Shown: in pieces, positions 15,800 through 59,865 of the stretch
How positions within the stretch are numbered: position 1 is the stretch's first letter
Layout: each line of letters begins with the position of its first letter
From: Candidatus Levybacteria bacterium RIFCSPHIGHO2_02_FULL_40_18
GTDB taxonomy: Bacteria > Patescibacteriota > Microgenomatia > Levybacterales > GWA1-39-11
Direction: 5' to 3'
Length of the DNA: 64,000 nt
NCBI GenBank assembly: GCA_001782235.1
Contig: MFOC01000007.1
Location: 156,040 to 220,039 of the forward strand
Notes under the pieces: generated by a model
What the model saw: only the letters and a program-made list of their open reading frames with translations
The model's database searches: none
What the model was told of the DNA's origin: nothing
Made by a program: the position numbers and the translations under genes

Positions 15800-16411
15800 T
15801 TACTTGTCTGAAAAATAGACTCTTCCTATTATTGATGCCTCATAGTTATTTTCTGCATTTTTACCCGTCGAGATTTTATCTATCCCAACAATTCTGTCAA
15901 AGCCAATAATATTTGAGATAAAAGCATTAACGCTTCGTTGATCTCCAATAATATCAACAGTAAAATTAAAAGAGTATATTGGTTCATTTTTAATATTAGG
16001 ATACAATTCAACAGTCCCAAAATTTAATTTTTTAATAGTAACACCCGAGTCTTTTGCAATATTCTCAAGCTGACGAGTTAAAAAGGGAATACGAGGAGTT
16101 TGCGGAATTGCCGAATAAATATTTTCCAAATCCTGCTGTATTTCTTTGTACTGAAAATCCAAAAGCGTTAGGCTCGAGAGTTTTTTATTCAAAGAATCAA
16201 GTATAAGCTTGTTGTCTTCATATTGTTTGTTGAGATTTGCGACTGTCGAAAGTGTAGGAGCAATAGCAAAAAATCCAAAAAATGAAAAGGCAAAGAGTGT
16301 CAAGATTATATAAAGATATGCCACAATCTTTTTCATTTGGTCCAGAGACAAAGCTTCAATATATCTTGAGTATATTTTCAGAAGATCTTGTATTATAGAT
16401 ATTCTTCTCAT
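15800..16411 (-). CDS. PilO-like pilus assembly protein (single TM + coiled coil + C-terminal domain)
   Basis: The topology and size match PilO. Directly downstream of the PilN-like gene. Confidence 0.35.
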   Translation of the reverse strand: MRRISIIQDLLKIYSRYIEALSLDQMKKIVAYLYIILTLFAFSFFGFFAIAPTLSTVANLNKQYEDNKLILDSLNKKLSSLTLLDFQYKEIQQDLENIYSAIPQTPRIPFLTRQLENIAKDSGVTIKKLNFGTVELYPNIKNEPIYSFNFTVDIIGDQRSVNAFISNIIGFDRIVGIDKISTGKNAENNYEASIIGRVYFSDK

Positions 16412-16412
16412 A

Positions 16413-16964
16413 TTAAATTTCTTTTAACCGCTGTTTTAATTCTATGGTTAGTTTAAATGAGACTCCGGAAGTTGCAGAAGATACATCGTCTAAAGCCAAT
16501 GAGACAACATTTGGATTTTCTTTAAGCGCTTCTAATAAGTTATTTATCGGGAATATTGAAAAAGCAACCCCATTAATACTAATTGAGCGTTGGCTTACGG
16601 TAAGGTTAGTTGATGAGAAATTACCTTTTGCTACAGAATCAAGAATTTGATTCATAATCTCAATTTTTGCTTGGGTGTCCTCTTCGGTATCTTTTATATT
16701 CAAAAGTCTCTCCTGAATGCTTCTGAAGTCTTTTTCTTTTGCGCTTTGCGCTTTTACAAACAATTCAGACTTTTTTATCTGATCATGCAGGTCTATAATT
16801 TTCCTGTCAATGGTAAATCTGTATATAAGAGCGGTAAGAGCTACTAATTCCGTTACGACAATTACGATTCTTCCAATATTTACAGTCCACTTTAAAAAAT
16901 TATCGGCCACTGAAATGCGAGCTTTACCAATAAGATTAATCTTCACATGAGGTGAATTCGCCAT
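16413..16964 (-). CDS. PilN-like fimbrial assembly protein
   Basis: N-terminal VKINLIG (compare the PilN INLLP motif), one TM, and a coiled-coil periplasmic part. In the printed sequence the ATG is at 16963-16965, and there is a 1-nt discrepancy with the track near 16920. Confidence 0.4.
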   Translation of the reverse strand: MANSPHVKINLIGKARISVADNFLKWTVNIGRIVIVVTELVALTALIYRFTIDRKIIDLHDQIKKSELFVKAQSAKEKDFRSIQERLLNIKDTEEDTQAKIEIMNQILDSVAKGNFSSTNLTVSQRSISINGVAFSIFPINNLLEALKENPNVVSLALDDVSSATSGVSFKLTIELKQRLKEI

Positions 16965-17021
16965 AATTTCCCTTTCTGTATGTTATCCTGAACCCCGCTT
17001 TATCGGGGTGAAGGATCTTTT

Positions 17022-17327
17022 CTAAAGCGTACCGGAATAAAACTCCAGCTTCTTTGAGAGATCCTCCCAATTAGGATTTTTAGATTCGATTAGTTTTATT
17101 TTCTTTGCCCTAGTCCAGCCTTTTATTTTCTTTTCTGCTTCGATAGCGTCTCTTACATATGAGAACTCTTCGAAAAAGACTAGTTTATTTACATTATATT
17201 TAGCTGTAAATCCTTTCATAAGTTTAACTTTATGCTGTCCTGTCCGAATTAATATATTATTTGTAACACCCGCGTAAAGAACTTTATCATTCCAATTAGT
17301 CATTATATAAACAAAATAGTGTTTCAT
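17022..17327 (-). CDS. Standalone GIY-YIG nuclease family protein (COG2827-like, ~100 aa)
   Basis: YFVYIMTNWNDKVLYAGVTNNILIRTGQHK matches the GIY-x10-YxG ... R ... H motif. Flanked by a 16-nt direct repeat (16950..16965 and 17376..17391). Confidence 0.8.
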   Translation of the reverse strand: MKHYFVYIMTNWNDKVLYAGVTNNILIRTGQHKVKLMKGFTAKYNVNKLVFFEEFSYVRDAIEAEKKIKGWTRAKKIKLIESKNPNWEDLSKKLEFYSGTL

Positions 17328-17428
17328 ATAAGGCTAAGATTCTTCGCCTATGGCTCAGAATGACAATACCACTTTGAGGTGAATTCGCCATGAATCCAGT
17401 TTAGGGAATTTCGGCTAGTTTGTAAAGC

Positions 17429-17761
17429 CTATTTTTTGGATGAGCTAACTTTTCTTTTAGGACTTTTTGCGGCTCTAAGTTTCGCGGTGGGCTTTCGAAT
17501 AGTCTTTGCTGGTTTAGCCCCTCGACTACGCTCGGGATGAACAAGTTTTGAGAGGGAAGATTTAAGCCGCGCAGCCTTATTTTGGTGGATTATGTGTCTC
17601 TTTACGGCACGATCAATAACAGAATATGCCTCGTTGGTCTTTGCGGGGGATTTTCTTGCCGTGCGAATCGCTCTTTCAAGCTTTGCACGAAGAGTATCAT
17701 TCTCTTTTTCTCTCTTTCTATCCTTTCTTAATTTTTTAATTGCTGATTTTATTACTGGCAT
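17429..17761 (-). CDS. rpsT: 30S ribosomal protein S20 with Lys-rich C-terminal extension
   Basis: MPVIKSAIKKLRKDRKREKENDTLRAKLERAIRTARK...IDRAVKRHIIHQNKAARLKSSLSKLV is a typical bS20. Confidence 0.8.
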   Translation of the reverse strand: MPVIKSAIKKLRKDRKREKENDTLRAKLERAIRTARKSPAKTNEAYSVIDRAVKRHIIHQNKAARLKSSLSKLVHPERSRGAKPAKTIRKPTAKLRAAKSPKRKVSSSKK

Positions 17762-17856
17762 TTTTCAAGTCTAGCGCATGGCCCGCCTAGACAGATATTA
17801 TCATCTATTTTTCTATCTGGGCAGGGCAATTTTAGCATGATATACTTGTAAATACA

Positions 17857-19509
17857 ATGGTAGCAAGTCTTGTAAAAAAAGGATTAACCGCTTTCGTATC
17901 AAAACAAACAAATATTTTTACTGCGGCATCGTTTATAATTTTAACAACAATTTTTTCTCAAATACTGGGAATCTTAAAATACAGATTGCTAGTGTCTCTT
18001 TTTGGAGCTTCACAAGAGCTCGGAGTCTTTTTTGCCGCGTTCAGAATTCCCGATTTTGTTTTCCAGGTAGTGATAGCAGGCGCTCTTTCCTCATCTTTTA
18101 TACCAATTTTTGCCGATTTTATTTCCCGCGATAAAAAGCAAGAAGGTTTTGAATTCTCTTCAACATTAATAACAATGGGATTGGTATTTTACATCTTTGT
18201 TTCGGCAGTAATTATTGTTTTTTCTTATCAACTGGCAAGTATTGTTGCGCCTGGGTTCTCTCAAAGTGAATTGCGGCTTATGGCAAATCTAATGATAATT
18301 ATTCAGCTCGCGCAAGTTTTTTTTATTTTAGGAACCATATTTACTGCCATGTTGCAATCTTTTCAGCATTTTGTCATCCCGGGTCTTGCCAGCGCATTCT
18401 ATAATTTTGGGATAATTTTGGGCTTAATAATTTTCTCCCATTTCTTAGGGGTTGGAATATACGGAGCTACTATAGGAGTTTTAATTGGAGCTATATTTTT
18501 TTCTCTTATTCAACTTCCACTACTTGCTGTTACCGGTTTTAGGTTTTCACCTTCTTTCGCTCTTACTCCGGGAATCGACAAGTTATTTCGACTTATGGTG
18601 CCCCGTTCTCTAACTGTTATCATTTCTCAAATCGCAGCAACAGCCAATGTTTTTTTTGCTTCATTTTTATCAGCAAGGTCGCTTGTAATCTTTGACCTGG
18701 CACATACACTTGCTATGGCCCCAGTTTTGCTACTAGGTCAATCAATTGCCCAAGCCTCTTTCCCGGCGCTCTCTTTAAAGTCGGGAGACAGACGTGAATT
18801 TCTTTCCATTTTAACATCTTCTTTTAATCAAATTCTATATTTAACTTTACCCATCAGCGCACTTTTAATAGTCTTGAGGATTCCATTAGTAAGGCTTTTT
18901 TATGGCGCGTCAAGATTTGACTGGGAGGCAACGGTAGAAACAGGATTAACACTTGCTTATTTTGCAATCGCAATTACTGCAAATGCATTAATTGCTCTTC
19001 TTTCGCGAGCTTTTTATGCTTTCAAAGATTCAAAAACACCGTTCATAATTACAAGTATTACTGTTGCCATTAATATTTTCTTGTCTTACCTCTTTATACT
19101 TACCTATCAATTGCCGATTTATTTCTTGGCATTTTCTTTTTCAACATCATCTATTGTTGGAGTGGTTCTAATGGCCTTTTTGTTAAATAAAAGAATTGAA
19201 CTGCCAAAAATAGAAATTATGGTTTCCTCTGCCAAAATTATTATTTCAACTATTGTTATGGGCGCCGCACTTTATATTCCTATCAAGCTCCTCGATCAAT
19301 TGGTATTTGATACCACAAGAACAGTCGGCTTATTGGCTTTGACAGGAATTGCCTCGGCGGCAGGATTTGCTTCCTATATTTTCTTCACGTGGCTTTTGGA
19401 TATAAAAGAAGCATATTACGTTATTCGCGTTCTTAAGAAATTCGGACAGAAGGATAAGATATTAAAGGGCCTAAACGAAATCATCGGCGGTCCCAAATTC
19501 AACGGCTGA
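17857..19509 (+). CDS. murJ: Lipid II flippase MurJ (MviN)
   Basis: About 14 TMs. The N-terminal FGASQELGVFFAAFRIPDFVFQVVIAGALSSSFIPIF matches the MurJ signature. Confidence 0.85.
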   Translation: MVASLVKKGLTAFVSKQTNIFTAASFIILTTIFSQILGILKYRLLVSLFGASQELGVFFAAFRIPDFVFQVVIAGALSSSFIPIFADFISRDKKQEGFEFSSTLITMGLVFYIFVSAVIIVFSYQLASIVAPGFSQSELRLMANLMIIIQLAQVFFILGTIFTAMLQSFQHFVIPGLASAFYNFGIILGLIIFSHFLGVGIYGATIGVLIGAIFFSLIQLPLLAVTGFRFSPSFALTPGIDKLFRLMVPRSLTVIISQIAATANVFFASFLSARSLVIFDLAHTLAMAPVLLLGQSIAQASFPALSLKSGDRREFLSILTSSFNQILYLTLPISALLIVLRIPLVRLFYGASRFDWEATVETGLTLAYFAIAITANALIALLSRAFYAFKDSKTPFIITSITVAINIFLSYLFILTYQLPIYFLAFSFSTSSIVGVVLMAFLLNKRIELPKIEIMVSSAKIIISTIVMGAALYIPIKLLDQLVFDTTRTVGLLALTGIASAAGFASYIFFTWLLDIKEAYYVIRVLKKFGQKDKILKGLNEIIGGPKFNG

Positions 19510-22052: not shown

Positions 22053-23951
22053 ATGGTTCGACAAGACTCACCACAAGTGAATCAATCTAACATTCGGAAT
22101 TTTTGTATTATTGCGCATGTGGATCATGGGAAGTCTACGTTGGCGGATAGGCTGCTTGAGATAACGGGGACTGTTCGAAAAGAAGAACTAAAAGAACAGT
22201 TTCTCGATTCAAGTGAAATTTCAAGGGAACACGGAATAACAATTAAATTAGCACCAGTCAGGATGGAATACAAGGTTGGGGGAGAGGTTAAAAGTTTGGG
22301 CAGCCAGTATAGTGAGGGGGTTGGGTCATTGGGTAAAAAAAGCCCTACAACCACACCCATAAACCATACTAGTAGCCACAACCAAACCCAAAACCAAACC
22401 TTCGTTTTGAACCTGATTGACACTCCGGGGCATGTGGATTTTTCCTATGAAGTTGTTCGAACACTTTATGCGTGTGAAGGGGCGATACTTTTGGTCGATG
22501 CTACAAAAGGAGTACAGGCCCAAACAGTTGCAAATTATAATTTTGCAAAAAAACTTGGACTTACAATTATTCCTGTAATAAATAAAATCGATTTACCTAC
22601 TGCGAATATAGAAAAGGTCGAGAACGAAATTGTTTCGAGTTTTGGATTTGATAAAGATTCGATATTAAAAATTTCGGCCAAGACCGGTGAAGGGGTCCAA
22701 GAATTAATTCGAACAGTTGTCGAAAGAGTTCCTGCCCCAGGTGGTAGTTCGGATTCTCCAACGCAAGCACTTATTTTCGACTCAATCTACGATGAGCATC
22801 GAGGGATTGTTATTTATGTTCGTTTAAAAAATGGAAGAATCAAAAAAGGCGACAAAATTGCTTTTGCATCGGACGGTTCGAAAACTCTCGTAAACGAGGT
22901 TGGATACATGAGGCCATTATTTTCTTATTCGGTCGAACTTGTAAACGGTGAGGTTGGTTTTATTATTACAAATATTAAAGACATAACTCAAGCAAAAGTT
23001 GGGGACACGATTCTAAATGAAAAGGGCGAAGGGACTTCTCTTGGTAAATATATTGAGCAGAAACCTTTCGTTTATTTATCGATTTATCCTACATCGATCT
23101 CCGATTTCCAAAATTTGAGAAAAGCTTTGTATAGGCTAAAACTCAATGATGCGGCACTTTCGATTGCTCCCGAACAATCAAATATTTTTGGTCCCGGTTT
23201 TCGCTGCGGATTTTTAGGGCTTTTACATGCACAAATTTTAATTGAGCGGATTGAGCGCGAGGAGGGGGTTGAAGTGTTTGCTGCGCCGCCATCAATCGAA
23301 TATATTGTTGATGGCAAAAGCATTACAAATCCAAAAGATTTTGATCTCGCAAATCACGAAGTAAAAGAGCCATATGTTTTGGGTGAGATTTATACCCCGC
23401 AGGAATATCTTGGTTCGATTCTTGAGTTAATACATAAGAGGCGGGGAGAAAGTTCGAACGTAACATATTTTGGCACACAGACTAAAATAGAATTTACAAT
23501 GCCTTTGGCTAATGTTATTTATGATTTTTATGACAAATTAAAAACCTTATCATCAGGTTTTGCTTCTTTTGATTATGATGTAGCAGACTTTCGGGAATCG
23601 AATTTATCCCGAATCGATATTTCCGTAAACAATAAGACAATTCCAGAGTTGTCATTCGTAGTTCATAAAAACGAGACAGAAAGTTTCTCGCGAAGAATGG
23701 TTAAAGCTTTATCCTTGGAAATTCCAAGACACCAGTTTGAAGTTTTTGTCAGAGCCCAAATTGGTTCACGTGTTGTTGCGTCAGAAAGGATAATGCCATT
23801 TAAAAAAGATGTAACTGCTAAATTATACGGCGGAGATAGAACCCGCAAAGACAAGCTTTTAGAGGCACAAAAGAAGGGCAAGAAAAAAATGAAAAAAATA
23901 GGACAAGTCAATGTCCCCAAAGAAGCCTTTCTAGCAGTATTAAAAGCTTAG
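22053..23951 (+). CDS. lepA: Elongation factor 4 (LepA) with a ~40-aa low-complexity insertion in the G domain
   Basis: AHVDHGKSTLADRLL, DTPGHVDF, NKID and a LepA C-terminal domain. Insertion VGGEVKSLGSQYSEGVGSLGKKSPTTTPINHTSSHNQTQNQT lies between switch I and G3 and is encoded by 7-nt-periodic DNA at 22270-22400. Confidence 0.9.
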   Translation: MVRQDSPQVNQSNIRNFCIIAHVDHGKSTLADRLLEITGTVRKEELKEQFLDSSEISREHGITIKLAPVRMEYKVGGEVKSLGSQYSEGVGSLGKKSPTTTPINHTSSHNQTQNQTFVLNLIDTPGHVDFSYEVVRTLYACEGAILLVDATKGVQAQTVANYNFAKKLGLTIIPVINKIDLPTANIEKVENEIVSSFGFDKDSILKISAKTGEGVQELIRTVVERVPAPGGSSDSPTQALIFDSIYDEHRGIVIYVRLKNGRIKKGDKIAFASDGSKTLVNEVGYMRPLFSYSVELVNGEVGFIITNIKDITQAKVGDTILNEKGEGTSLGKYIEQKPFVYLSIYPTSISDFQNLRKALYRLKLNDAALSIAPEQSNIFGPGFRCGFLGLLHAQILIERIEREEGVEVFAAPPSIEYIVDGKSITNPKDFDLANHEVKEPYVLGEIYTPQEYLGSILELIHKRRGESSNVTYFGTQTKIEFTMPLANVIYDFYDKLKTLSSGFASFDYDVADFRESNLSRIDISVNNKTIPELSFVVHKNETESFSRRMVKALSLEIPRHQFEVFVRAQIGSRVVASERIMPFKKDVTAKLYGGDRTRKDKLLEAQKKGKKKMKKIGQVNVPKEAFLAVLKA

Positions 23952-23953
23952 AC

Positions 23954-24106
23954 GCTCGTGTACATTTTTCTCAGACCCGCTCGGTAAGTTATTAGTTTAT
24001 TAATGTTATCCTCCCTTCGCTAAATGAAAATCGCATATTCACTTTAGTCTATATGTAATATTTTTCTTGAGCGATTTTCAGTTGTCTTCGAAAAATGTAC
24101 ACTTTG
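23954..24106 (+). repeat. ~155-bp MITE-like / structured element, copy 2
   Basis: Terminal inverted repeats cgtgtacatttttc / gaaaaatgtacac (13 bp perfect), with inner stem gaaaatcgc / gcgattttc. Exactly fills the convergent gap between the lepA stop (23951) and the stop of gene 24110..25309. Confidence 0.8.
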
Positions 24107-24109
24107 CGC

Positions 24110-25309
24110 CTAAAGGGCTAGGAGGGCGAGTCCGGCGACTATTGTCAGGATTATTGCCCCGATTATGCCAATAGTTTTTGCTACCTCCCCGGGCGGCGGA
24201 ACAGTTGGAGCAGTTGTTGGAACAGCTGTAGGGGAGGATGTTAGCGTACTTGTTGGGGTGAGCTGGCCGGATGATGTGCCTGTTGGCGTTGGCGCCGCCC
24301 CGGTGGGGCTCTGCCCCGGAGGGGGCGCGGTCGTAGCAGATCCTGCCGCTGTTGCCGTTATTGTTTGAGTACATGCAGTTGAAATCTTACCTCCATTATC
24401 CGTAAATACCGCTGTTGCGCCAAATGTTCCCGCAGACTGATATGTATGATTAGTTTGAATAGTAGCGGATTTTTGTCCAAGACCCTCCGTTATATCCTGA
24501 ATACTTCCATCGCCAAAGTTAAAAGATGCTTTTGTTAAGGTTCCGGCTGCGTCTGGATCATTGCCTTTGGCGGTTAGGGAAACTGAGAAAGGGGCGCTGC
24601 CTGTGACAGAAGGACTTACAGATAATTCTGTACAGAGAGGTGCTTGATTTGCAGTGCCTGTTGGAACAGTAGTGGGTGCGCTTGTTGGTGAGATTGTGCC
24701 AGTTGGCTGGGTTCCTGTAGGTGTCACAGTAGGTGTGACGGTTCCGCCAGTTGTACAGGCGTCAGACCCTATAGTTACATTTGCCGTAGAGACTTGAAAC
24801 AATACATTTTCGGTTGGTTCATCAGCCGGCGCCAGAGAGAAAACACGAGATTTCTCCGAGTCAAATGATATCTGTGCGCTTCCTGCTGCTTTTGGACGGA
24901 AGGTAACCGTGGCAACCTTTGAGACTACTTGTACGGCCCGTGTGACATCTGCTCCAACAGAGACGGACATATTTGCTTCTCCGCTTGAGACGCTGACCGG
25001 TCTCACTACTGTTGAAAAACTATCACTTTCTTTAATTTGTAGGACATCAAGTTTGGTAGGATCATATTTAAGGTAAAAATCAACTATAGAAACAATATTA
25101 GAGCTGGGATCGAGCATGATATCAACATTGAAATTTTGACATTGAGTTGAAGTATTTACATTTTCAGGACTAAAGGTGAGTTTTGAAGAAGGAGCGGCAC
25201 GACTTCGCAGTTCTTGTTGTCTTTTAATAAAAAAGAGAGTGAGGGGAATGCTTATCAAAAGCAACAATAAATTCCCAAGTATAAAATACCTGTTGGTTAA
25301 AATTTTCAT
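24110..25309 (-). CDS. Membrane-anchored surface protein with PKD-like domain and Thr/Pro/Gly-rich linkers
   Basis: N-terminal TM; NFGDGSIQDITE...HTYQSAGTFGATAVFTDNGG (PKD-like); C-terminal TM anchor. Contains GC-rich 35-nt motif copy A at 24291..24325. Confidence 0.5.
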   Translation of the reverse strand: MKILTNRYFILGNLLLLLISIPLTLFFIKRQQELRSRAAPSSKLTFSPENVNTSTQCQNFNVDIMLDPSSNIVSIVDFYLKYDPTKLDVLQIKESDSFSTVVRPVSVSSGEANMSVSVGADVTRAVQVVSKVATVTFRPKAAGSAQISFDSEKSRVFSLAPADEPTENVLFQVSTANVTIGSDACTTGGTVTPTVTPTGTQPTGTISPTSAPTTVPTGTANQAPLCTELSVSPSVTGSAPFSVSLTAKGNDPDAAGTLTKASFNFGDGSIQDITEGLGQKSATIQTNHTYQSAGTFGATAVFTDNGGKISTACTQTITATAAGSATTAPPPGQSPTGAAPTPTGTSSGQLTPTSTLTSSPTAVPTTAPTVPPPGEVAKTIGIIGAIILTIVAGLALLAL

Positions 25310-34256: not shown

Positions 34257-35136
34257 CCTGTTCGAGGCTCGCATATTGTTTGCTCACCCAGCCGAGCGTT
34301 CCGTCCTCAAGTTCTATTTGAAACCAGCTTGCATTTTCATCAACAAAAAGATAAGATTCTCCGGGATTTACGCGACTAATCTCCTGTGATGCAGTTGAAG
34401 GGTTTTCTCTCACTCTTAAAAATCCTACGGGCGTATTTTTGATTGTTACTTGCGGTTGATTTGCTTCTGTTGGGGAGGGTATCGGGGCGCCGCCCCGGAG
34501 GGACTCTGCCCCGGAGGGTGTGGACGTAGGTTCTAAGGTTTCATCGGCTGTACCTTGCGTTCCCAATATCACATTAAGAACCAGCTTATAAGAGGGAACC
34601 GCTCTTACTCTTACTGTCTTTTTTGAAAAGCCCTGCTTTTGAATTTCTATTTCGTGTTCTGAAGGAGAAATAGAGTTTTGCGAAAGAGGCGTAATTCCTT
34701 CTTCCCTTCCATCAATTGAAACAAGCGCGCCATCAGGGATAGACGCAACAAAAAGTTGCGGGTCGCTCGAATTGGTTTTTTCAAGCGCCAAAATATATGA
34801 GGAGGCATATGCCCCTGGCAAAAAAGTTCGCTCAACTGCCGTTAATACTCCGGAATTTATTCTAACGCGCGACATAAACGGTTCAACATTTTTATCATCT
34901 GGCACTATTTTTAATTCGTATACTCCTGCATTTAGCGTATCGTGTTGCTCACAACGACATAAAGGAGTTTGTCCTAATGGTTTATTATCAAGAAAAACCT
35001 GCGCCTTTATATTCGATGTGACTTGAAGGGCTCCTTTTCCGGCAGGCACAAGCGTATTTGCCGCAATCCTAACCAAAAGAAACATTCCGGCAAGAATTAA
35101 AATAATCGCAACAACAAGAAGAATTCTTCTTTTCAT
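34246..35136 (-). CDS. PEGA-domain protein with C-terminal SH3b-like domain
   Basis: N-terminal TM; ALQVTSNIKAQVFLDNKPLGQTPL and SIPDGALVSIDGREEGITPL (PEGA-like); C-terminal WFQIELEDGTLGWVSKQYA (SH3b-like). Contains GC-rich motif copy B at 34486..34518. Confidence 0.5.
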   Translation of the reverse strand: MKRRILLVVAIILILAGMFLLVRIAANTLVPAGKGALQVTSNIKAQVFLDNKPLGQTPLCRCEQHDTLNAGVYELKIVPDDKNVEPFMSRVRINSGVLTAVERTFLPGAYASSYILALEKTNSSDPQLFVASIPDGALVSIDGREEGITPLSQNSISPSEHEIEIQKQGFSKKTVRVRAVPSYKLVLNVILGTQGTADETLEPTSTPSGAESLRGGAPIPSPTEANQPQVTIKNTPVGFLRVRENPSTASQEISRVNPGESYLFVDENASWFQIELEDGTLGWVSKQYASLEQATE

Positions 35137-35327: not shown

Positions 35328-36749
35328 TTATTGGAGGCGGGGGAAGAGAGGGGGGGCGGACTTAATTTTTCCCGAGAATTGCGGAAGAATCTTTTCGGCG
35401 GTTTCGGGAAGAAACGGCCTAAGGTTGTATCCAATCTCTTGGACTCTTTTGACTAGATCTTTTAATACCTTCGAAAGTTCTTCGCCCGCCAGCTTCCAAG
35501 GTTCGCGAGCGTTTATTAATTGATCTGCCTCAGCAATTAATTGCCAAATTCCCCGTAAACCTTCATTGAATTTGAATTCTTCAAAAGATTTATCGACATC
35601 CGCGCACCAAACTTTATAAGTATCAGGCGCTTCAAAATTTTCCTTCTCGCAAAGCTTTGCAACTCTTGCCACCAAATTCCCTAACCCATTGGCAAGATCT
35701 GCGTTATAAACTTCGCGGAATTTATCTTCCGAAAAATCACCATCTTGGAAAGGCGAAAATTTGGCAAGAAAATAGTAGCGAAGCGGATCAGCCCCATATT
35801 TCTCAACAAGCGGCGTTGGATCAATAATATTCCCGAGCGTTTTTGACATCTTTTGTCCGTTGACAGTAAAGTACTCATGAACAAAAAGAGTTTTAGGCAA
35901 AGGGAGCCCAGCGGAAAGTAAGATTGCCGGCCAGTAAATAGCGTGAAATCGGATAATGCCCTTACCGATTACGTGAACATCCGCCGGCCACCACTTTTTG
36001 TATTTTTCATCGTCCCGGCCGAATCCTATACCGCTTTGATAAATGTTTAAAGCATCAAACCAAACATATATACGCTGTGAATCATCGCCCGGAACGGGTA
36101 CTCCCCAATTTTTGGCCCTCTCATTTGTTCGAGAAATGCTAAAGTCCGAAAGACCGGATTTTATTAAAGAGAGCATTTCGTTCTTTCTAAATTCAGGAAT
36201 TATTTTATATTCGTCCGACTCGATTAGTTTTAATAACTTATCCTGATAGGAAGAGAGTTTAAAAAAATAATTCTCCTCAGAAACCTCCTCAAGCTTTTTG
36301 CCAGGATGCTCGTAGCATTCGCCTTTTTTGTTTAATTCGTCTTTTGTATAAAATACCTCACATCCTACACAATAGAGACCTTTATATGGTTTTTTATAGA
36401 TATCGCCGGCCTTATCGCACAATTCCCAGAGTTTTTGGCTTGAGGGGTAGTGGGTTTTCTTATCACTTCCCTTTTGCCAGACATCAAATTGAACATTTAG
36501 CTTCTTTGAGAGATCATAAAAGGCTTGAGTATTACGATCGACAAATTCCTGAATAGGGACTCCGGCTTCCTCTGCGGCTTGTACATTTTTTAAGGCATTC
36601 TCGTCCCCGCCGCACAAAAGTAAAACATCCTCACCTTTTAATCTATGGTAGCGCGCGATAGCATCAGATTGGACAAATTCCAAAGCATGGCCCACGTGAG
36701 CGGCAGCATTCACGTAAGGGATCGCATTTGTGATATAGAACTTGTTCAT
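35328..36749 (-). CDS. metG: Methionyl-tRNA synthetase (short form lacking C-terminal tRNA-binding extension)
   Basis: AIPYVNAAAHVGHALEF (HIGH-type), Zn knuckle CVGCEVFY, KMSKTLGNIIDP (KMSKS). The last 10 codons are GC-rich. Confidence 0.9.
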   Translation of the reverse strand: MNKFYITNAIPYVNAAAHVGHALEFVQSDAIARYHRLKGEDVLLLCGGDENALKNVQAAEEAGVPIQEFVDRNTQAFYDLSKKLNVQFDVWQKGSDKKTHYPSSQKLWELCDKAGDIYKKPYKGLYCVGCEVFYTKDELNKKGECYEHPGKKLEEVSEENYFFKLSSYQDKLLKLIESDEYKIIPEFRKNEMLSLIKSGLSDFSISRTNERAKNWGVPVPGDDSQRIYVWFDALNIYQSGIGFGRDDEKYKKWWPADVHVIGKGIIRFHAIYWPAILLSAGLPLPKTLFVHEYFTVNGQKMSKTLGNIIDPTPLVEKYGADPLRYYFLAKFSPFQDGDFSEDKFREVYNADLANGLGNLVARVAKLCEKENFEAPDTYKVWCADVDKSFEEFKFNEGLRGIWQLIAEADQLINAREPWKLAGEELSKVLKDLVKRVQEIGYNLRPFLPETAEKILPQFSGKIKSAPPLFPRLQ

Positions 36750-59439: not shown

Positions 59440-59865
59440 CTATAGCTGTTTTACGTCGTCCTCGATGCCTTTAAGATCGGTCTCAGGGCTTCCAAGATCG
59501 ATTGTTTCTATATCTTCTTCAGAAAGCGGCGTGGGCGTTGGTGTTAGCGTGGGCGTTGGAACCTGTGTAGGGGCCGGAGTTACCTGTGCGTTGTTCTGAT
59601 TATTAAGCTGAGTTGCCAAGAAATAAGTTACCCCAAGAACTATAAGCAAAAGAATTCCAACTGCAATAAATAAAACCATTTTACTGTTCGGCGGCATGGC
59701 AGGCCCTCCTTGACTTGCGGGTGGTGTGAGGGGAGCAGTCGGTTGAGGAGGTGTTGGCGCCGCCCCGGAGGGGCTCTGCCCCGGAAGGGGTGGTGCGGGC
59801 GGAACGTTTCCCACAGGCACAGTGGGATTGTCAAGAGTTTGATTTTGTGGTTGATTTGGGTCCAT
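59440..59865 (-). CDS. Pro-rich single-TM protein, hypothetical
   Basis: PPAPPLPGQSPSGAAPTPPQPTAPLTPP ... TM ... TPAPTQVPTPTLTPTPTP. Contains GC-rich motif copy C at 59756..59790. Confidence 0.35.
   Translation of the reverse strand: MDPNQPQNQTLDNPTVPVGNVPPAPPLPGQSPSGAAPTPPQPTAPLTPPASQGGPAMPPNSKMVLFIAVGILLLIVLGVTYFLATQLNNQNNAQVTPAPTQVPTPTLTPTPTPLSEEDIETIDLGSPETDLKGIEDDVKQL

Follow-up and report, generated by a model that had tools for sequence, protein, structure and literature searches.

Positions 16965-17374 of a 64,000-nucleotide stretch of Candidatus Levybacteria contig MFOC01000007.1, hereafter the window, are probably a 410-bp insertion sequence (IS)-like mobile cassette of the Ssn/SRM system, in which a nuclease (Ssn) is paired with hairpin repeats (SRMs). 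The cassette encodes only a 101-residue GIY-YIG nuclease of the Ssn family and lies at the first codons of a PilN-like gene. It is bracketed by an exact 17-nt direct repeat, TGAGGTGAATTCGCCAT on the + strand, at 16948-16964 and 17375-17391; read on the - strand, as ATGGCGAATTCACCTCA, the 17-mer covers codons 1-5 of the PilN-like gene and a further two bases. Between the copies lie 410 nt with a single open reading frame (ORF; 17022-17327, - strand), which is the one GIY-YIG gene in the window. A first-pass annotation had reported the repeat as 16 nt in length; the repeat is real and its second copy was correctly placed, but it is one base longer, and the first 16-mer occupies 16949-16964 rather than 16950-16965.

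Empty sites were found in related species, which were reached through PilN homologues 70-81% identical to that of the window. In L188, L189 and L190 (GCA_040960765.1), whose PilN proteins are 79%, 75% and 70% identical to the window protein, respectively, the gene order MurJ, S20, PilN and PilO is kept, there is no GIY-YIG gene, and a single 17-mer is present between rpsT and pilN. The L189 site reads TAAACTGGATTC, ATGGCGAATTCACCTCA and CGTGAAG in succession, its 17-mer being identical to that of the window, and the corresponding 17-mers are ATGTCGAATTCACCTCA in L188 and ATGCCGGATTCACCTCA in L190. As the occupied site differs from the empty one by 410 nt and an additional 17-mer, the repeat is a genuine target-site duplication. 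This bears out the earlier suggestion that a GIY-YIG cassette had inserted here, for which a comparison with empty sites had been proposed beforehand. We regard the insertion as secure; the sequences show where exactly its boundaries lie, the duplication and the empty sites, as well as the younger age of the cassette described below. The element and its host locus are organized as follows:

16965-17374, - strand: inserted element of 410 nt (occupied minus empty site), consisting of left spacer, SRM-L, ssn, SRM-R and a right spacer with a Shine-Dalgarno (SD) sequence
17375-17391, - strand: upstream 17-bp copy of the duplication, ATGGCGAATTCACCTCA, which keeps the host pilN promoter and start codon and opens a 31-residue leader ORF
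17365-17374, - strand: left terminal spacer AAGTGGTATT, separating the duplication from the hairpin's GTCAT tag; 100% conserved in L019, a second occupied species
17338-17364, - strand: SRM-L hairpin GTCATTCTGAGCCATAGGCGAAGAATC (coding strand), with a 5-bp outer stem, a tandem G.A/A.G mismatch and a 3-bp inner stem
17296-17391, - strand: 31-residue leader ORF running from the captured pilN ATG through SRM-L and overlapping the ssn start
17022-17327, - strand: ssn, 101-residue single-domain GIY-YIG nuclease of the Ssn family (Pfam PF01541, E = 2e-16)
16982-17017, + strand: SRM-R hairpin GTTATCCTGAACCCCGCTTTATCGGGGTGAAGGATC, inverted relative to SRM-L; it includes the 'GC hairpin' of the first-pass annotation
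16965-16981, - strand: right terminal spacer ATACAGAAAGGGAAATT, with an outward-facing SD-like AAGGG 5 nt before the duplicated pilN ATG
16948-16964, - strand: downstream 17-bp copy of the duplication, the working pilN start (MANSP...)
16413-16964, - strand: PilN-like gene, the target, left intact (Pfam PilN, 24 bits; homologues 70-81% identical)
17398-17426, - strand: predicted host pilN promoter-like site, TTTACA-17 nt-TAAACT, then 6 nt and ATG
17429-17761, - strand: rpsT (ribosomal protein S20), the upstream neighbour
15800-16411, - strand: PilO
17857-19509, + strand: MurJ

The age of the cassette is illustrated by L019 (GCA_001782125.1), another Levybacteria species, which carries it at the same nucleotide. 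Both repeat copies of L019 read ATGGCGGATTCACCCCA, with the same two substitutions relative to the window in each copy. Nucleotide identity between the window and L019 is 76% in murJ, 68% in rpsT and 82% in both pilN and pilO, compared with 100% over the 47 nt of 5' non-coding cassette DNA, 91.5% in ssn and 95% in the 3' non-coding end. Synonymous divergence (dS) is 0.27 for ssn versus 0.81 for pilN, 0.90 for pilO and 1.43 for murJ (Fisher p = 6e-8 for ssn against all flanks together), and the 47 non-coding nt contain 0 changes where ∼8 would be expected at the divergence of the flanks (p = 9e-5). The ratio of non-synonymous to synonymous divergence (dN/dS) of ssn, 0.19 against L019, indicates purifying selection. 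The high identity is confined to the cassette and stops at the repeats, with no gradient into the flanks. Because the dS of ssn falls so far below that of the flanking genes, the cassette appears to have arrived after the hosts split. The simplest account of these sequences is that it reached both lineages separately, each time with a fresh duplication of the host's own sequence, such that the same position would have been hit independently in the second species. In murJ and rpsT, moreover, the empty L188 groups with L019 (89.6% amino-acid identity in MurJ, versus 82% for the window).

At the strain level, 18 loci were collected via identical S20, PilN and GIY-YIG proteins. In 16 of them, drawn from independent assemblies (NCBI, JGI, ENA and Logan), 550 nt of the region are 100% identical, and the remaining two contigs break off within it; no empty site was present among the 18. 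The organism given for the assemblies at these loci is Candidatus Levybacteria and the protein is annotated as 'hypothetical'. The identity of the region across independent assemblies excludes an assembly artefact. A search of the window with the 17-mer, allowing up to two mismatches, returned three matches versus 0.03 in shuffled sequences, and the 17-mer is the only non-tandem exact repeat of at least 16 nt in the window whose copies lie less than 1.5 kb apart. In control geometries at ∼80 loci the longest flanking repeat was 6-12 nt, CRISPR and other repeat arrays excepted.

The nuclease is, by sequence, a member of the Ssn family, and we consider this assignment secure. Ssn proteins are single-domain GIY-YIG enzymes of ∼94 residues (CDD cd10448), described in 2025 as the first site-specific endonucleases that act only on single-stranded DNA (ssDNA) (Chenal et al., Nat Commun 2025, PMC11893778). 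They bind an oriented hairpin repeat, termed NTS in Neisseria and SRM generally, only as ssDNA, and in Neisseria and Wolbachia cleave a few nucleotides 5' of the SRM; an SRM flanks 71% of ssn homologues, and in 42% there is one on either side (PMC11893778). The authors noted an IS-like layout and put forward mobility only as a hypothesis, and their text does not mention duplication, an insertion site or Patescibacteria/Candidate Phyla Radiation (CPR) bacteria (PMC11893778). In the window protein, PF01541 spans residues 4-77 and no other domain was found; searches of the 101 residues against NCBIfam and PDB sequences returned no match, nor did a scan of viral contigs. A tblastn match in N. gonorrhoeae is a 94-residue ORF, on a chromosome filed among plasmids, which lies amid seven NTS copies (CGTCATTCCCGCG..GCGGGAATC) and was assigned to SsnA from its length, residues and NTS flanks, the characterized protein being the N. 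meningitidis orthologue. The window protein is 42% identical to this ORF over 85 residues without gaps (blastp, E = 2e-24). Tyr7, Tyr18 and Glu65 of the window protein align with Tyr6, Tyr17 and Glu64, the catalytic residues mutagenized in SsnA; among 33 homologues Tyr18 and Glu65 are invariant and Tyr7 is at least 90% conserved.

The gene is flanked by two inverted hairpins with their GTCAT ends facing outward. In gene orientation the order is repeat, AAGTGGTATT, GTCATTCTGAGCCATAGGCGAAGAATC, 10 nt, ssn, AAAA, GATCCTTCACCCCGATAAAGCGGGGTTCAGGATAAC, ATACAGAAAGGGAAATT and repeat, in which the second hairpin, GATCCTTCACCCCGATAAAGCGGGGTTCAGGATAAC, is the first hairpin type on the other strand (GTTATCCTGAAC...GTGAAGGATC); at SRM-R, L019 displays the canonical GTCAT tag. 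Folded as DNA, SRM-L has an energy of -3.7 kcal/mol (z = -2.1) and SRM-R of -9.4 kcal/mol (z = -4.5). The first-pass annotation had described the segment as containing only the GIY-YIG ORF and one GC hairpin at 16993-17008. The ORF is indeed alone and that hairpin is real, but it is the inner stem of the larger structure at 16982-17017; its counterpart upstream of the ORF, at 17338-17364 on the - strand, was missed, and the gene and hairpins were not recognized as an Ssn nuclease with SRM hairpins of the type since described (PMC11893778). A search of Rfam with positions 16300-18000 (E up to 10) gave only sub-threshold noise and no family for the hairpins.

The published SRM pattern, HGTCWYN(0-2)YYVSBRHN(0-5)WNVSBRGN(0-2)RNCYNB, applied as a regular expression, matched the Neisseria NTS but matched neither hairpin in the window and none of 164 ssn loci, because a conserved G.A/A.G mismatch breaks the pattern. 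Among 331 distinct SRMs (loci L027-L199) the 5-bp outer stem covaries (T-A, C-G, G-C and A-T) and is followed by the tandem G.A/A.G mismatch, conserved in 275 and 244 of them, respectively, and then by a variable inner stem; the consensus of this variant across many phyla is GTC-ATNNN-GA...GA-N'N'N'AT-C. Based on this comparison we read the G.A/A.G hairpins as a variant class of SRM that the published pattern misses, rather than as evidence against family membership. The outward-facing inverted pair found in the window is the commonest arrangement of the nearest SRMs (86 of 162 loci). Tails such as RDSSLRSE or DPSLALRMT on many annotated GIY-YIG proteins are the translated 3' SRM hairpin, with the stop codon lying beyond it. 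Other identities considered for the hairpins were rejected: a hammerhead-like CUGA...GAA lacks the core positions G8 and A9, and an integron attC site (GTTATCC) does not fit GTTRRRY, L019 having GTCAT at that place, and no integrase is present.

Elements with the same organization occur in other gene contexts. In L025 and L026 an ssn 77% identical to that of the window, with ends built alike, is located between a 135-residue mreD-like gene, downstream of mreC, and the PBP2 gene, bracketed by its own exact 17-mer, ATGGTAAAAATTGGTCC, which starts at the PBP2 ATG. The upstream copy in L025 holds the stop codon of the 135-residue gene (TGGTAA) and the downstream copy starts PBP2, both genes being preserved, as a duplication predicts. 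At the same places as in the window, the L025 left spacer is ATGTGATT and the right ends are AAAAGGGGGAAAGTCT in L025 and AAAGGAGCGGCGT in L089. In Levybacteria-type elements the spacers from tag to duplication measure 8-10 nt on the left and 16-18 nt on the right, and their conservation among the window, L019 and L025 shows that they are part of the element. In L089, an alphaproteobacterium, the 3' end of a gene carries a 409-nt inverted-SRM cassette, the bracketing repeat being exact over 20 nt and reaching 24 nt if one mismatch is allowed. The lengths of the four elements bounded by target-site duplications are 410, 411, 414 and 409 nt. Duplicated host sequence, for which the first-pass annotation had proposed to examine the flanks of other GIY-YIG genes, was found at L019, L025 and L089 but no further: L089 was the only clean extra duplication in a systematic search of 160 further ssn loci, in which most flanking repeats were SRMs, and the repeats of 12-13 nt flanking L127 and L131 are within the control range. 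An att-core, or site-specific recombination, was rejected as the source of the repeats, the 17-mer being wholly different between sites and no recombinase being encoded. In the window the target GGCGAA looks like the 3' arm of SRM-L, which would hint at guidance in trans by a hairpin, but L025 shows no such likeness and the notion is retained as an idea only.

Other relatives were found in further contexts. Genes 90%, 84%, 74% and 73% identical to the window ssn occupy at least four other gene contexts, three of which (P0005, P0006 and P0008) are known from gene layout alone. In Azospirillum lipoferum 4B plasmid AZO_p3 (L197, 564-1180), ssn and four SRMs lie between sufB and sufC, which are directly adjacent in three Azospirillum relatives with flanks 96-97% identical; in Shinella sp. 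PSBB067 (L203) ssn with SRMs is likewise located between sufB and sufC. One Bacteroidales metagenome-assembled genome (MAG) contains two 99.2%-identical 474-nt ssn units (L068 and L085) in unrelated contexts. In other inter-genome pairs of cassettes, homology ends 0-2 nt outside the GTCAT tags. Most ssn loci possess several SRMs, in arrays that expand and contract even between near-identical genomes.

Individual loci offer further observations. In L197, L203 and L089 the inserted DNA begins with TAG, the stop codon of the upstream gene. L146 and L149 differ by an indel of ∼86 nt upstream of ssn, consisting of whole SRM units, and L124 and L126 differ by tandem half-SRM units of 24 nt, GTACGTCAGAATGACACAAAGCGG, repeated 8-11 times, illustrating the instability of hairpin arrays. 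The L146 cassette (1733-2405) lies between tRNA-Gly(CCC) and tRNA-Thr(CGT). In Planktothrix agardhii plasmid p1 (L193, 1501-1785), ssn and many SRMs are found between an MmeI-type restriction-modification gene and DISARM drmA, in a defence island. In L027 (2368-2905; M50 peptidase, ssn, msrB) the msrB ATG abuts the GTCAT tag of the 3' SRM, and the left flank, GTGAGATTCGTAAT, bears a weak likeness to the start of msrB, ATGAAGAGTAAGGT, perhaps as the remnant of a decayed duplication.

The position of the cassette relative to the pilN start has consequences for expression of both genes. A site of the form TTGACA/TTTACA-17-TAAACT-6-ATG, with no SD, precedes pilN in all five species, occupied or empty (window 17392-17426, - strand; L188 2860-2906; L189 2965-3003; L190 2960-3003). 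The pilN mRNA is probably leaderless; its predicted +1 coincides with the A of the start codon, where the duplication also begins. As read from the sequence, the cassette has no promoter and ssn no SD; in L025 the TGA of the equivalent leader ORF overlaps the ssn ATG, and the leader ORF probably delivers ribosomes to the SD-less ssn. The right end carries an SD-like sequence 5-7 nt before the duplication, AAGGG in the window, GGGGG in L025 and AAGGAG in L089. In both CPR events the duplication begins exactly at the A of the ATG. This exact position could reflect selection for the spacing of the cassette SD, the host genes having no SD of their own, or it could be mechanistic, for example through targeting of ssDNA at an initiation bubble. 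Co-oriented genes start within 25 nt of the 3' SRM in 26 of 122 cases, a figure that is suggestive and lacks a proper control. The cassette had also been invoked to explain why no pilM precedes pilN; however, the empty sites too go without pilM, a conserved promoter for pilN follows immediately after rpsT, and no PilM domain was found in the neighbouring ORFs scanned, so the explanation fails.

These features are brought together in the following model. The inverted SRMs, with their GTCAT tags outward, would serve as terminal inverted repeats. Because the SRMs are inverted and face outward and Ssn nicks 5' of the GTCAT side, cleavage like that of the characterized enzymes would nick opposite strands at the two outer ends of the element, as would be anticipated for cleavage at termini, and nicking at both SRMs would mobilize it. 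The cassette inserted 17 bp into pilN and duplicated ATGGCGAATTCACCTCA, which would reflect staggered target nicks 17 bp apart that were filled in after joining. The variable length of the duplication elsewhere (20-24 bp) looks more like nick-primed, repair-assisted insertion than the work of a rigid DDE synaptic complex. Once inserted, the host promoter and start codon in the upstream copy would drive transcription and translation into the cassette, while the right end would provide the displaced pilN ATG with a new SD, keeping pilN expressed, an arrangement that may be called 'start-codon capture'. Like an IS, the cassette is present or absent at an orthologous site, is bounded by a target-site duplication, carries terminal inverted repeats and has relatives in different contexts. 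That Ssn itself is the transposase we infer with about equal expectation of being right or wrong. The broader proposition, that SRM-ssn-SRM cassettes of ∼410 bp are autonomous transposable elements which use their sole protein, a 100-residue GIY-YIG ssDNA nickase, as transposase, live by start-codon capture and perhaps target ssDNA in promoter or initiation bubbles, is tentative and more easily wrong than right. If autonomous, a ∼410-bp cassette would to our knowledge be the smallest autonomous mobile element in cellular genomes.

Several observations weigh against this model. The sole ORF encodes a GIY-YIG nuclease, and not a transposase of a recognized class (DDE, HUH/Y1, serine or tyrosine); no GIY-YIG transposase is described in the literature searched, and we know of no strand-transfer activity for a GIY-YIG enzyme of the Ssn family. 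The window contains a single copy of the element and no solo SRMs, the only SRM motifs being the two at the gene. The distances from duplication to GTCAT tag are unequal, at 10 and 17 nt in the window, 8 and 16 nt in L025 and 27 and 31 nt in L089, and since they exceed the ∼4-nt cleavage offset reported for Neisseria SsnA it is not obvious that Ssn cuts at the element ends. No more than four lineages have clean duplications, with none further among ∼110 loci with assessable flanks; Azospirillum displays no clear duplication, and L068/L085 have no target duplication and only a 3' hairpin. No convincing target motif or hairpin is shared by the three targets, ATGG...TC plus a small loop at the insertion point being too weak, and no common motif accounts for one site having been used repeatedly. 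The host tree is not clean, as pilN and pilO give a near-trichotomy. In Neisseria, the host role of SsnA is the restriction of transforming ssDNA (PMC11893778). Perhaps only certain sublineages generate duplications, or duplications can be recognized only while an insertion is young, and L068/L085 may represent a differently behaving sublineage.

Several of these points would also fit a host or domesticated ssn-SRM module carried as passive cargo and inserted by machinery other than Ssn, for example when transforming DNA is integrated at a staggered break by an illegitimate or microhomology-mediated route, or when an unseen transposase acts in trans, with Ssn itself serving a host function such as ssDNA restriction. 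The demonstrated host role of Neisseria SsnA, the lack of known transposition activity, a duplication whose length varies (17, 17 and 20-24 nt) and is missing in L068/L085 and Azospirillum, and ends at no fixed distance from the SRM tags are all consistent with such passive insertion. We nevertheless regard it as unlikely. Four independent elements are near-equal in size (409-414 nt) and have the same end architecture, the duplications of two CPR events have precisely the same length (17 nt), and in two species the insertion occupies the same nucleotide position. In addition, the unit contains no other ORF, and its inverted SRMs, by analogy the recognition sites of the encoded enzyme, are placed as its termini.

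It is less probable still that there was one ancient insertion, in the common ancestor of the window and L019, followed by vertical inheritance. Here L188 would have lost the cassette by recombination between the 17-nt repeats, the repeat copies would have been kept identical by gene conversion, and the cassette would look young through strong nucleotide-level constraint. The shared position in both species, the near-trichotomy of pilN and pilO, and the fact that a perfect empty site would be regenerated if the direct repeats recombined are in keeping with this history. However, the synonymous divergence of ssn is 3-5 times below that of all three flanking genes, and the unchanged 47 non-coding nt also speak against it. 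The two substitutions common to both repeat copies in each species would require conversion between 17-nt tracts, which is unlikely, and close relatives of ssn occur in other contexts. Separate, recent arrivals of the cassette explain these data more simply.

Classical intron-less homing of the T4 Seg/Mob type, in which an empty allele is cut and the gene is copied across by double-strand-break repair, is very improbable; the first-pass annotation had named a 'homing-type insertion' as one reading of the repeat. GIY-YIG is a classical homing-endonuclease fold, and occupied and empty alleles coexist at one orthologous position in several species. Homing, however, makes no target duplication, and the repeat copies are recipient-specific in both species, which is not expected from break repair; there is no co-conversion gradient in the flanks, and the same type of element is found at unrelated sites. 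Furthermore, the 101-residue, one-domain protein has no DNA-binding domain, and members of its family cut only ssDNA beside their own hairpin. That the repeat is fortuitous or an artefact, with no insertion at all, can be dismissed, since the empty sites, the 16 identical loci among 18 and the L025 architecture with a different 17-mer already refute it and control repeats reach ∼12 nt at most, even though unrelated exact 17-mers do occur in the window. One such pair, AGCTTCTTTGAGAGATC, at 17047-17063 in the ssn coding region and 36499-36515 in an unrelated ORF, has no extension and no protein similarity and looks like chance; lone 17-mers do arise in 64 kb.

Two other repeats were observed in the window. 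An intergenic repeat of ∼150 nt is present in two copies (∼2518-2670 and ∼23951-24100), roughly 85-90% identical, one beside a UvrD-like helicase gene and the other after lepA. A GC-rich motif with short palindromes, GGCGCCGCCCCGGAGGGGCTCTGCCCCGGAGG, occurs three times, at 24288-24320, 34486-34518 and 59753-59785, in a sequence of 39% GC.

The Ssn gene and its hairpin system were already known from 2025. What is new relative to PMC11893778 and the literature searched is a resolved insertion with empty sites, a 17-bp duplication and a ∼410-bp unit with defined ends, together with its recent passage between species into a single site, the arrangement of start codon and SD, the G.A-type class of SRM and the presence of the system in CPR bacteria. 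For the hypothesis of Ssn mobility the locus thus supplies a nucleotide-resolved insertion, empty sites, a duplication length, element ends and recent interspecies spread, and whether Ssn is a transposase becomes directly testable with a 410-bp substrate and a 101-residue protein. Were this true, it would represent a new catalytic class in bacterial transposition, a new mechanistic class of IS and a minimal hairpin-guided system of DNA insertion. The data also show that the published search pattern misses a large class of G.A-mismatch hairpins found across many phyla, and they explain many GIY-YIG genes labelled 'hypothetical' in annotations of CPR and other MAGs, along with unusual peptide tails there such as DPSLRSG.

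Comparison with known systems places the cassette closest to Ssn/SRM units (PMC11893778), with which it shares a single-domain GIY-YIG protein of ∼95-100 residues, the same spacing of the catalytic Tyr/Tyr/Glu, and hairpins on both sides with a GTCAT 5' tag and an ATC 3' tag. It differs in that its hairpins are of the tandem G.A/A.G variant, no dispersed SRMs are present in the window and the host belongs to the CPR, and in being recognizable, from its 17-bp duplication and from empty sites, as a discrete 410-bp insertion. IS200/IS605 and REP/RAYT (REPIN) elements offer a parallel, as these too are very small and have imperfect hairpin ends recognized as ssDNA by their own nuclease, a property that the window element would share by analogy; in both cases, too, hairpins can multiply into arrays beside a single-copy gene. 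The cassette is not, however, a member of IS200/IS605, its enzyme being GIY-YIG rather than HUH/Y1 (there is no TnpA) and its hairpins inverted and outward-facing. Moreover, IS200/IS605 insertion proceeds without target duplication, in contrast to the 17 bp seen here, and the size of IS200 is roughly 700 bp or more, compared with ∼410 bp. Free-standing GIY-YIG homing endonucleases (T4 SegA-G and I-TevI type) have the same fold, are small selfish genes between conserved host genes and generate occupied and empty alleles; the window cassette, in contrast, has neither a DNA-binding domain nor flank co-conversion, possesses a target duplication and terminal hairpins, and encodes an enzyme whose activity, judged from its family, would be ssDNA-specific. 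Penelope-like retroelements employ a GIY-YIG nickase in target-primed insertion and generate variable-length duplications that are longer than usual for DDE transposons, whereas the window element is bacterial, consists of 410 bp of DNA with hairpin ends and encodes no reverse transcriptase.

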